Shown piece by piece: positions 45,828 through 50,791 of a DNA stretch of 64,000 bases. This DNA comes from Escherichia coli (GTDB lineage: Bacteria; Pseudomonadota; Gammaproteobacteria; Enterobacterales; Enterobacteriaceae). The notes beneath the pieces were generated by a model. It worked only from the letters and a program-made list of their open reading frames with translations. It ran no database searches and was not told the origin of the DNA. The stretch lies in NCBI RefSeq assembly GCF_024502345.1, contig NZ_JALDNN010000001.1; one strand, written 5' to 3'. A program made the translations under genes and the position numbers. How positions within the stretch are numbered: position 1 is the stretch's first letter; each line of letters starts with the position of its first letter.

Positions 45828-47189
<1,362 letters not shown>

Positions 47190-47328
47190 AACGTGAGGAA
47201 ATACCTGGATTTTTCCTGGTTATTTTGCCGCAGGTCAGCGTATCGTGAACATCTTTTCCAGTGTTCAGTATGGTGCCTTGCACGGTAATTATGTCACTGG
47301 TTATTAACCAATTTTTCCTGGGGGATAA

Positions 47329-48468
47329 ATGAGCGCGGGAAGCCCAAAATTCACCGTTCGCCGCATTGCGGCTTTGTCACTGGTTTCGCTATGGCTGGCA
47401 GGCTGTTCTGACACTTCAAATCCACCGGCACCGGTCAGCTCCGTTAATGGCAATGCGCCTGCAAATACCAATTCTGGTATGTTGATTACGCCGCCGCCGA
47501 AAATGGGGACGACGTCTACAGCCCAGCAACCGCAAATTCAGCCGGTACAGCAGCCACAAATTCAGGCCACTCAACAACCGCAAATCCAGCCAGTGCAGCC
47601 AGTAGCTCAGCAGCCGGTACAGATGGAAAACGGACGCATCGTCTATAACCGTCAGTATGGGAACATTCCGAAAGGCAGTTATAGCGGCAGTACCTATACC
47701 GTGAAAAAAGGCGACACGCTTTTCTATATCGCCTGGATTACTGGCAACGATTTCCGTGACCTTGCTCAGCGCAACAATATTCAGGCACCATACGCGCTGA
47801 ACGTCGGTCAGACCTTACAGGTGGGTAATGCTTCCGGTACGCCAATCACTGGCGGAAATGCCATTACCCAGGCCGACGCAGCAGAGCAAGGAGTTGTGAT
47901 CAAGCCTGCACAAAATTCCACCGTTGCTGTTGCGTCGCAACCGACAATTACGTATTCTGAGTCTTCGGGTGAACAGAGTGCTAACAAAATGTTGCCGAAC
48001 AACAAGCCAACTGCGACCACGGTCACAGCGCCTGTAACGGTACCAACAGCAAGCACAACCGAGCCGACTGTCAGCAGTACATCAACCAGTACGCCTATCT
48101 CCACCTGGCGCTGGCCGACTGAGGGCAAAGTGATCGAAACCTTTGGTGCTTCTGAGGGGGGCAACAAGGGGATTGATATCGCAGGCAACAAAGGACAGGC
48201 AATTATCGCGACCGCAGATGGCCGCGTTGTTTATGCCGGTAACGCGCTGCGCGGCTACGGTAATCTGATTATCATCAAACATAATGATGATTACCTGAGT
48301 GCCTACGCCCATAACGACACAATGCTGGTCCGGGAACAACAAGAAGTGAAGGCGGGGCAAAAAATAGCAACCATGGGTAGCACCGGAACCAGTTCAACAC
48401 GCTTGCATTTTGAAATTCGTTACAAGGGGAAATCCGTAAACCCGCTGCGTTATTTGCCGCAGCGATAA
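47329..48468 (+). CDS. nlpD: murein hydrolase activator lipoprotein NlpD
   Basis: 379-aa ORF with lipobox LAGC, Q/P-rich repeat linker, LysM and C-terminal M23-like domain. Confidence 0.92.
47524..47622 (+). repeat. imperfect 24-bp tandem repeats inside nlpD (Q/P-rich linker)
   Basis: cagcaaccgcaaattcagccggta repeated about 3-4 times with substitutions, encoding QQPQIQPV-like units. Confidence 0.8.
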
Positions 48469-48530
48469 ATCGGCGGAACCAGGCTTTTGCTTGAATGTTC
48501 CGTCAAGGGATCACGGGTAGGAGCCACCTT

Positions 48531-49523
48531 ATGAGTCAGAATACGCTGAAAGTTCATGATTTAAATGAAGATGCGGAATTTGATGAGAACGGAGTTGAGG
48601 TTTTTGACGAAAAGGCCTTAGTAGAAGAGGAACCCAGTGATAACGATTTGGCCGAAGAGGAACTGTTATCGCAGGGAGCCACACAGCGTGTGTTGGACGC
48701 GACTCAGCTTTACCTTGGTGAGATTGGTTATTCACCACTGTTAACGGCCGAAGAAGAAGTTTATTTTGCGCGTCGCGCACTGCGTGGAGATGTCGCCTCT
48801 CGCCGCCGGATGATCGAGAGTAACTTGCGTCTGGTGGTAAAAATTGCCCGCCGTTATGGCAATCGTGGTCTGGCGTTGCTGGACCTTATCGAAGAGGGCA
48901 ACCTGGGGCTGATTCGCGCGGTAGAGAAGTTTGACCCGGAACGTGGTTTCCGCTTCTCAACATACGCAACCTGGTGGATTCGCCAGACGATTGAACGGGC
49001 GATTATGAACCAAACCCGTACTATTCGTTTGCCGATTCACATCGTAAAGGAGCTGAACGTTTACCTGCGAACCGCACGTGAGTTGTCCCATAAGCTGGAC
49101 CATGAACCAAGTGCGGAAGAGATCGCAGAGCAACTGGATAAGCCAGTTGATGACGTCAGCCGTATGCTTCGTCTTAACGAGCGCATTACCTCGGTAGACA
49201 CCCCGCTGGGTGGTGATTCCGAAAAAGCGTTGCTGGACATCCTGGCCGATGAAAAAGAGAACGGTCCGGAAGATACCACGCAAGATGACGATATGAAGCA
49301 GAGCATCGTCAAATGGCTGTTCGAGCTGAACGCCAAACAGCGTGAAGTACTGGCACGTCGATTCGGTTTGCTGGGGTACGAAGCGGCAACACTGGAAGAT
49401 GTAGGTCGTGAAATTGGCCTCACCCGTGAACGTGTTCGCCAGATTCAGGTTGAAGGCCTGCGCCGTTTGCGCGAAATCCTGCAAACGCAGGGGCTGAATA
49501 TCGAAGCGCTGTTCCGCGAATAA
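48531..49523 (+). CDS. rpoS: RNA polymerase sigma factor RpoS (sigma-38)
   Basis: Start at [11 protein letters not shown] (330 aa); sigma-70 family regions 2-4; no premature stop. Confidence 0.95.
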
Positions 49524-49643: not shown

Positions 49644-50084
49644 CTATGTGCTCATCATCTTGCGCACCAACTGCATAAACAGCTCCTGCTCTTCTACACT
49701 CAAACGCCCCAAAAATTCCTCATCCACGCGGTCACCAATCGGTATCGCCGCAGCAAGTATCTTTTCTCCTTCGGCAGTCAGCCAGACAAAGCGTCGCCGC
49801 TTATCAGCGGCGTCATGTTCACGTCTGACTAAGCCACGATTTTCCATTCTTGCCAACATTTCTGCCAGCGTTGCTTTGGTGCTGACTGCTGCTTCTATCA
49901 GTGCCACCTGTTCGATACCAGGCTTATCAGCAATGGCACGCATCACCGCATACTGTGGTTTGGTCAGGTCAGGTAACTCGTGCTGCCAGCGAGCCGTGTG
50001 CTGCTGAAAAAGCTGTCGTAACTGATGGAACGCTTTATTTCGTAACGCCATGTAAACTCCGGGCAAACTATCTGCCGCTATCAT
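49644..50084 (-). CDS. MarR/SlyA-family transcriptional regulator
   Basis: 146-aa ORF with winged-helix region typical of MarR proteins; divergent from the UbiX-like gene. Confidence 0.75.
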   Translation of the reverse strand: MIAADSLPGVYMALRNKAFHQLRQLFQQHTARWQHELPDLTKPQYAVMRAIADKPGIEQVALIEAAVSTKATLAEMLARMENRGLVRREHDAADKRRRFVWLTAEGEKILAAAIPIGDRVDEEFLGRLSVEEQELFMQLVRKMMST

Positions 50085-50197: not shown

Positions 50198-50791
50198 ATG
50201 AAACTGATCGTCGGGATGACAGGGGCTACCGGTGCGCCTCTTGGTGTGGCATTACTGCAAGCGCTGCGGGAGATGCCGAATGTCGAGACTCATCTGGTGA
50301 TGTCGAAGTGGGCGAAAACCACCATTGAACTGGAAACGCCTTACAGCGCCCGCGATGTTGCTGCCCTCGCTGACTTCAGCCATAACCCGGCGGATCAGGC
50401 GGCGACCATCTCCTCAGGTTCCTTTCGTACCGACGGCATGATCGTTATTCCGTGCAGTATGAAAACGCTCGCCGGTATCCGCGCTGGTTACGCTGATGGC
50501 CTGGTAGGGCGCGCGGCGGACGTCGTGCTCAAAGAAGGCCGCAAACTGGTGCTGGTGCCGCGTGAAATGCCGCTTAGCACCATCCATCTCGAAAATATGC
50601 TCGCACTTTCACGCATGGGCGTGGCGATGGTGCCGCCGATGCCTGCCTTTTATAACCATCCCGAAACGGTAGATGACATTGTCCACCATGTAGTAGCCCG
50701 CGTGCTGGATCAATTTGGCCTCGAACATCCCCACGCCAGGCGCTGGCAAGGATTGCCGCAGGCCGGGAATTTTTCTCAGGAGAATGAATAA
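50198..50791 (+). CDS. UbiX-like flavin prenyltransferase (decarboxylase subunit B)
   Basis: 197-aa ORF, MKLIVGMTGATGAPLG start, flavoprotein fold. Confidence 0.85.
   Translation: MKLIVGMTGATGAPLGVALLQALREMPNVETHLVMSKWAKTTIELETPYSARDVAALADFSHNPADQAATISSGSFRTDGMIVIPCSMKTLAGIRAGYADGLVGRAADVVLKEGRKLVLVPREMPLSTIHLENMLALSRMGVAMVPPMPAFYNHPETVDDIVHHVVARVLDQFGLEHPHARRWQGLPQAGNFSQENE

Follow-up and report, generated by a model that had tools for sequence, protein, structure and literature searches.

Length variation of an imperfect 24-bp tandem repeat in the nlpD linker of Escherichia coli

Introduction

NlpD of E. coli is an outer-membrane lipoprotein that activates AmiC and promotes the separation of daughter cells (PMC5533458). 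Its LysM domain is both necessary and sufficient for septal localisation, its two linkers are predicted by DISOPRED to be disordered, and the N-terminal linker alone shows a weak enrichment at midcell (PMC5533458). An amino-acid repeat in the protein was described by Ichikawa, Li, Fu and Clarke (J Bacteriol 176:1630, 1994), as relayed in PMC2736372, which places the repeat in the NlpD proteins of E. coli and Salmonella and gives it as absent from Yersinia NlpD. As far as this account extends, the 1994 repeat is in the same gene and in the same N-terminal proline/glutamine-rich stretch as the one analysed here, with no difference in kind. The repeat itself is an already known and ordinary feature of a well-studied protein, and what we add is modest, namely a strain-level picture comprising a recurrent 48-nt deletion, rare alleles longer by 9 or 72 nt, and the mapped breakpoints of these changes. 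In the searchable literature we found no report of the nlpD 48-nt deletion or of other length alleles.

Three further systems are comparable. Domain II of tolA, like the nlpD linker, is encoded by imperfect repeat units that keep the reading frame. Both proteins span the periplasm and belong to the envelope machinery that serves cell division and the outer membrane, and in both genes natural isolates differ in copy number without function being destroyed (PMC3477136). The two differ in scale, however, since tolA has 13 units of 15-18 bp, copy numbers between 8 and 16 among 234 isolates, and phenotypic effects that were measured (PMC3477136), whereas the nlpD array has three diverged units, about 1% of variant genomes, and steps of two to three units. 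In nlpD itself, Salmonella Typhimurium UK-1 carries a small in-frame deletion (12 bp) that was judged to lie outside the rpoS promoter and to be unlikely to affect rpoS (PMC3391293). It is found in another species, has another size and sequence context, and is strain-specific, whereas the E. coli deletion described below is recurrent. Recurrent mutation in nlpD, as the gene that houses the rpoS promoter, is also known from Pseudomonas fluorescens SBW25, but there one C-to-T substitution recurs at the rpoS promoter proper, in a transcription-dependent manner that requires the promoter to be induced (PMC11838912). The E. coli repeat, in contrast, lies at least 340 nt upstream of the promoter and varies in length.

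The repeat and its place in NlpD

The window analysed here, a stretch of 64,000 nt of E. coli DNA, contains the truD-surE-pcm-nlpD-rpoS cluster as judged from its open reading frames (ORFs), and the gene order pcm-nlpD-rpoS is found both in the ORFs of the window and in the annotation of matching RefSeq records. A 351-nt probe placed over the repeat matches E. coli O145 RM9872 at every position, and the DNA that it matches is annotated as 'murein hydrolase activator NlpD' in 5,420 of the 5,426 complete RefSeq E. coli genomes. The nlpD coding sequence runs from 47329 to 48468 (+ strand; 379 aa from ATG), an assignment based on the ORF list, the Pfam LysM and Peptidase_M23 matches, and the RefSeq annotation of matching DNA. 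It is followed by rpoS at 48531-49523 (+ strand; 330 aa from MSQNTLKV, inside the ORF 48495-49523), in keeping with the 993-nt rpoS annotated after nlpD in relatives. Inspection of the translation by eye gives the lipobox L-A-G-C of a lipoprotein signal peptide at residues 23-26 (47395-47406, + strand), whose Cys26 carries the lipid anchor and begins the mature protein. The LysM domain at residues 123-165 (47695-47823, + strand; Pfam PF01476, E = 2.7e-12) and, at the C-terminus, the degenerate LytM or Peptidase_M23 domain at residues 279-372 (48163-48444, + strand; Pfam PF01551, E = 4.1e-33) follow in the order expected of NlpD. The solved structures that are related to NlpD (DipM and EnvC) match the C-terminal LytM domain only, and AlphaFold2 run on 25 close homologues gave a mean pLDDT of 28.5, which is low even over the known domains. 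That the N-terminal linker is probably disordered is drawn from the DISOPRED prediction (PMC5533458), from its composition and from the lack of solved relatives for this part.

The start of the gene is called differently by RefSeq/PGAP, at TTG 47374 (364 aa) and in one strain at CTG 47380. The form beginning with ATG 47329 (379 aa) places the basic KFTVRR before the hydrophobic core and the lipobox, and is the more lipoprotein-signal-like.

The initial annotation of this DNA had placed imperfect 24-bp tandem repeats at 47524-47622, three to four units coding for octapeptides like QQPQIQPV, in the linker between the lipoprotein anchor and the LysM domain of NlpD, and this description is borne out at these coordinates by Tandem Repeats Finder, by reading in the nlpD frame and by codon shuffles. 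Tandem Repeats Finder reports a single array at 47527-47589 with a period of 24, 2.6 copies, 75% matches and a score of 70. All of the repeat elements lie on the + strand. Unit 1 (47524-47547; CAG CAA CCG CAA ATT CAG CCG GTA) starts at codon 66 and reads QQPQIQPV in the nlpD frame. Unit 2 (47548-47571) reads QQPQIQAT and unit 3 (47572-47595) again QQPQIQPV, both of them recovered by Tandem Repeats Finder, by frame reading and by a repeat search, and a degenerate tail (47596-47622; frame reading and repeat search) reads QPVAQQPVQ. The earlier count of three to four copies is a fair one, as three well-preserved units are followed by one degenerate remnant. The array spans residues 66-98 within the N-terminal linker, whose 96 residues (27-122) extend from Cys26 to LysM. 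When nlpD is compared with itself at a lag of 24 nt, the best self-match (33 of 48 positions) begins at 47518, and this value was equalled in none of 1000 shuffles of the codons of the whole gene and in 3 of 1000 shuffles of the linker codons; the three 24-nt units stand head to tail, in register, at a level above the shuffles. At the nucleotide level units 1 and 3 are the most alike (20/24, with all four differences synonymous), followed by units 1 and 2 (17/24) and units 2 and 3 (15/24), and the longest run of identical bases between adjacent units is at most about 9.

Length alleles in E. coli genomes

Among the 5,426 complete RefSeq E. coli genomes, the array has the same length in about 98.7% and differs in about 1.2%. 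An identical in-frame deletion of 48 nt that leaves a single unit is present in 61 genomes (1.1%), as counted with a 52-nt junction probe at an E-value limit that is beyond the reach of natural alleles. This deletion came to light in the weakest match of a 151-nt probe, where it was shown by alignment, and it is reflected in the annotated length of nlpD, which is 1047 nt in TW14359 and ECCWS199 versus 1095 nt in K-12. The carriers include the O157:H7 strains TW14359, EC4115, SS17 and SS52. In the protein collection, the 363-aa deletion protein of the O157:H7 type is found on at least 1000 contigs, a second 363-aa type is also found on at least 1000 contigs with source names that include Shigella flexneri, S. 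dysenteriae and S. boydii, and a third 363-aa type is found on 160 contigs. Counting the genomes with less than 80% coverage (23 genomes) was rejected as a measure of the deletion, the two pieces of a deletion allele jointly reaching 81.5% coverage, and the 103-nt deletion allele was unsuitable as a query in that pieces from three-unit genomes were joined and the alleles were inseparable.

Longer alleles are rarer. Four of the 5,426 genomes (13P460A, PS2Canimalfeces3, SW07096 and Rb-50) have an additional 9 nt that encode a third tandem QPV. Five units, arising from an exact 72-nt duplication, are present in one E. coli assembly (P0003/L009) that is outside the set of 5,426, and a probe for this duplication junction, used unmasked and able to recover L009 locally, matched none of the 5,426 genomes. 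Seven units, from an exact 72-nt duplication of three units, are present in a non-coli, Escherichia-like genome (P0004/L008), whose rpoS gene has no E. coli counterpart closer than 96.6% identity.

The alleles to be expected from the gain or loss of a single unit are missing from this series. The way in which BLAST reports indels of 24, 48 and 72 nt in the array was calibrated locally, such that an allele differing by 24 nt is expected as one gapped alignment with 93.2-93.6% identity to the 351-nt probe, and most such alleles are expected at 84-86% identity to the 151-nt probe. With the 351-nt probe, no record among the 5,426 genomes falls in the 90-95% identity band, and the sole match of the 151-nt probe between 80 and 90% agrees with what would be expected of RM9387, a divergent strain that has three units and a local identity of 83%. 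Junction probes for the 24-nt alleles were dropped, because the units resemble each other and the natural three-unit alleles cross-match such probes at 50-72 bits.

Copy number therefore does differ from strain to strain, with one, five and seven units seen besides three, and the invariance across relatives that would have told against the initial annotation is contradicted by the 61 genomes with one unit, although such variation is rare. The notion that copy number changes among relatives stands in this sense, but the changes are of 48, 72 and 9 nt and none is a single step of 24 nt. By these observations the nlpD array is a variable tandem repeat in a weak sense only.

Breakpoints and recurrence of the length changes

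The breakpoints that could be mapped, those of the 48-nt deletion and of the E. coli 72-nt duplication, coincide with short exact direct repeats within the array. The longest exact match between units is an 11-mer, CAACCGCAAAT, with one copy in unit 1 (47527-47537, + strand) and the other in unit 3 (47575-47585, + strand), 48 nt apart, and these copies form the left and the right end of the recurrent 48-nt deletion. The single hybrid unit that remains after the deletion reads CAG CAA CCG CAA ATC, and the crossover therefore lies inside this 11-nt repeat. Similarly, the junction of the 72-nt duplication in L009 lies within a 12-mer, CAGCCGGTACAG, whose first copy (47539-47550, + strand) is followed 72 nt downstream by the second (47611-47622, + strand). 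Two tandem 9-nt QPV units, CAGCCAGTG CAGCCAGTA, at 47587-47604 (+ strand) are the site at which the four genomes carry a third copy. Each of the changes seen, whether of 9, 48 or 72 nt, preserves the reading frame.

Deletion and duplication between short direct repeats can occur by replication slippage, of which the hotspots in lacI are the classical type. The nlpD breakpoints resemble these in that they lie in exact direct repeats of 11-12 nt that are 48 or 72 nt apart and in that the change is recurrent, the difference being that in nlpD the breakpoints are the sole basis on which the mechanism is assigned. From their positions we infer that the mapped length changes arose by slippage between short direct repeats. 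That one-unit steps are not seen fits the short runs of identity, of about 9 bases or less, between adjacent units.

To place the deletion on its chromosomal backgrounds, eight deletion alleles and seven three-unit alleles were compared over about 1.9 kb containing 61 variable sites. The deleted allele of TW14359 has no difference from a three-unit O157:H7 genome, that of 2013C-3342 has one difference from a three-unit O111:H8 genome, those of ECCWS199 and P276M have two differences from BL21, and that of PEC145 has three differences from MG1655. Three further deletion alleles are on other haplotypes. In total about six haplotype backgrounds carry the deletion, each of them nearest to a three-unit allele, in a count that groups AMSHJX01 with 2013C-3342 (3 differences apart). 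Independent recurrence of the 48-nt deletion is the simplest reading of this pattern, and some of the backgrounds could have acquired the deletion with a short recombined patch and not by an event of their own.

The repeat in other species and genera

Alleles of the E. fergusonii type keep the three units. In Citrobacter, Salmonella, Enterobacter, Lelliottia, Kosakonia and others the corresponding region is a degenerate stretch rich in Q, P and V and of similar length, with the linker taking the form TPQIQPVQxPxTQPxQIQPV..QPVQ, and in C. freundii the stretch is shorter and holds a single unit. Every Enterobacteriaceae homologue inspected, the deletion alleles included, has at least one copy of PQIQPV. 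At 24 loci, units were extracted by selecting QQPQIQ-coding 24-mers, and the number obtained agrees at each locus with the units counted directly, so that each unit there codes for QQPQIQ. Across these loci all six third codon positions of QQPQIQ vary, as do the last two residues of the octapeptide. One database representative has QQSQIQPV.

The genome of RM9387 (L002, NZ_CP009104.1) is labelled E. coli, yet its nlpD linker is 81.5% identical to that of the window, and its set of repeat units is the same as in proteins named E. fergusonii.

Proposed explanation of the repeat

Based on the anatomy of the array, its breakpoints and its distribution among genomes, we put forward an explanation that we consider very likely as a whole, in which the array is a linker repeat whose length variants arise by slippage and are tolerated, and which has no part in the rpoS leader. 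In this explanation, the repeat is the proline/glutamine-rich, low-complexity part of the N-terminal linker, and the linker would serve as the tether by which the lipid anchor in the outer membrane holds the LysM and LytM domains. The array presumably represents an old triplication of a PQIQPV-type motif that is single or degenerate in other Enterobacteriaceae, the units of which would since have diverged at synonymous sites. As a consequence of this divergence, adjacent units should be poor substrates for slippage and the three-unit state should be stable, as it is in about 98.7% of the genomes. Misalignment of the 11-mers of units 1 and 3 would give the recurrent in-frame 48-nt deletion with its one remaining unit, misalignment of the 12-mers at their spacing of 72 nt would give the duplication seen in E. 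coli, and the two tandem QPV 9-mers would allow the gain of a third. The variants, all of them in frame, would be tolerated and close to neutral, with a shorter or longer tether as their main effect.

Two qualifications apply to this proposal. The linker may be more than a passive spacer, in view of the constant QQPQIQ and of the weak midcell enrichment of the linker alone (PMC5533458). In addition, the deletion could be mildly deleterious rather than neutral, because three units persist, both in 98.7% of the genomes and in the E. fergusonii-type alleles, even though the deletion cannot simply revert.

For biology at large these results have little import, as the feature was already described and its link to rpoS does not hold. 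Their use is more specific. The 48-nt deletion is a lineage marker in about 1% of complete E. coli genomes and, by the source names of the proteins, in Shigella, and it can confuse allele calling and length-based annotation. [quoted passage not shown]

A possible functional role for the QQPQIQ peptide

The explanation that survives best after a tolerated tether, and that we nevertheless hold to be improbable, is that QQPQIQ is a functional module. It might, for example, target NlpD weakly to the septum, bind a partner, or act as a rigid ruler of the polyproline kind, and its copy number would tune the distance or the strength with which NlpD reaches the cell wall for AmiC activation. The repeated loss of two units from O157:H7 and Shigella lineages would then be an adaptation. 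It draws on the conservation described above, in that a QQPQIQ core is present in each unit examined while the third positions of its six codons all vary, and in that PQIQPV is never lost from the Enterobacteriaceae homologues inspected. This synonymous variation around a constant peptide suggests some selection on the peptide, and it is the chief ground on which the reading keeps any weight. The partial midcell enrichment of the N-terminal linker by itself points in the same direction (PMC5533458), and tolA offers a precedent in which the copy number of an in-frame spacer in an envelope protein modulates stress tolerance (PMC3477136). The occurrence of the deletion on about six backgrounds, and its being common in an O157:H7 lineage and in Shigella, could likewise be taken as a sign of selection.

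The last of these points is weakened by the breakpoints, however, since the deletion falls exactly at the best substrate for slippage that the array has to offer, and mutational bias alone explains its recurrence. Furthermore, only 1.2% of the genomes differ in length, Yersinia NlpD has nothing of the whole region and still functions (PMC2736372), and it is LysM, rather than the linker, that is necessary and sufficient for localisation (PMC5533458). The specific proposal that the copy number of QQPQIQ sets the reach of NlpD to the cell wall, and that the two-unit loss in O157:H7 and Shigella is a selected adjustment of envelope coupling, is in our estimation quite improbable.

Position of the repeat relative to the rpoS promoter

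The initial annotation had further suggested that the rpoS promoter lies inside nlpD, which is the case, and that changes in the repeat could thereby shift the geometry of the rpoS leader, which the distances contradict. The main rpoS promoter is within nlpD and gives rise to a leader of 567 nt (PMC10948607). Relative to the rpoS ATG, the -35 element is at -601 to -596, the -10 element at -578 to -573 and the start at -568 to -566 (PMC1852560), and when these published positions are mapped onto the window the promoter occupies 47930-47965 (+ strand), with TTGCGT as the -35 element at 47930-47935, TATTCT as the -10 element at 47953-47958 and the start at 47963-47965. The repeat (47524-47622) is upstream of all of these elements, at -440 to -342 from the mapped start and at -1007 to -909 from the rpoS ATG at 48531. 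It is outside both the core promoter and the leader, and the geometry of the 567-nt leader is therefore unchanged by the length of the repeat.

A role of repeat length in rpoS expression at the level of DNA or RNA, through leader or promoter geometry, is for this reason very improbable. Apart from the location of the promoter in nlpD, what speaks for such a role is a low-level nlpD-rpoS read-through transcript (PMC10948607). This weak transcript is the only one that includes the repeat, and in it over 900 nt separate the repeat from the rpoS start codon. Rfam has no family over the repeat, and the predicted RNA fold of the repeat is no better than that of shuffled sequences (z = 0.37). The authors who described the 12-bp nlpD deletion of Salmonella UK-1 came to a like judgement on that deletion (PMC3391293). 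A scan of 47150-48600 with the sigma-70 consensus found no site, because the rpoS promoter itself, TTGCGT-17-TATTCT, is too far from the consensus.

Two remaining readings are scarcely credible. That the array is a contingency (phase-variable) locus, switching the state of NlpD at high frequency, is recommended by a tandem repeat in the gene of a surface-associated protein for which length variants exist, but its units are 63-86% identical in place of the near-identical units of highly mutable loci, their length is a multiple of three and so gives no on/off switch by frameshift, and the length is constant in about 98.7% of the 5,426 genomes, with single-unit steps not seen. That the length variants are artefacts of assembly or sequencing, as might be thought from the collapse of repeats in short-read assemblies and from the five-unit and seven-unit alleles each coming from one assembly, conflicts with the occurrence of the deletion in 61 closed genomes from many laboratories, with its following a lineage (TW14359, EC4115, SS17 and SS52) and being encoded on hundreds to thousands of independent contigs, and with the array, at 99 nt, being shorter than a sequencing read.

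Other variation at the nlpD-rpoS locus

Several further observations concern the surroundings of the repeat. In the search with the nlpD-linker probe, one genome had two separate matches and six of the 5,426 had none. Downstream of rpoS, the window contains a MarR-family ORF (49644-50084, - strand) and a flavoprotein (UbiX-like) ORF (50198-50791, + strand), and in the related locus L008 a UbiD-family gene is located further along, past the corresponding region. In the protein collection, two proteins (P0045 and P0092) consist of NlpD up to about residue 305-320 fused to a UbiD-like C-terminus and a third (P0088) consists of the same part of NlpD fused to RpoS region 4. These fusions are deletions that take out all or most of rpoS. 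The rpoS gene of CFT073 (L020, NC_004431.1) is annotated as frameshifted in RefSeq. The linker between LysM and LytM, which is rich in Thr, Ser and Pro, lacks 39 residues (window about 47940-48056) in a 340-aa NlpD variant (P0030), and the second linker of NlpD therefore also varies in length.
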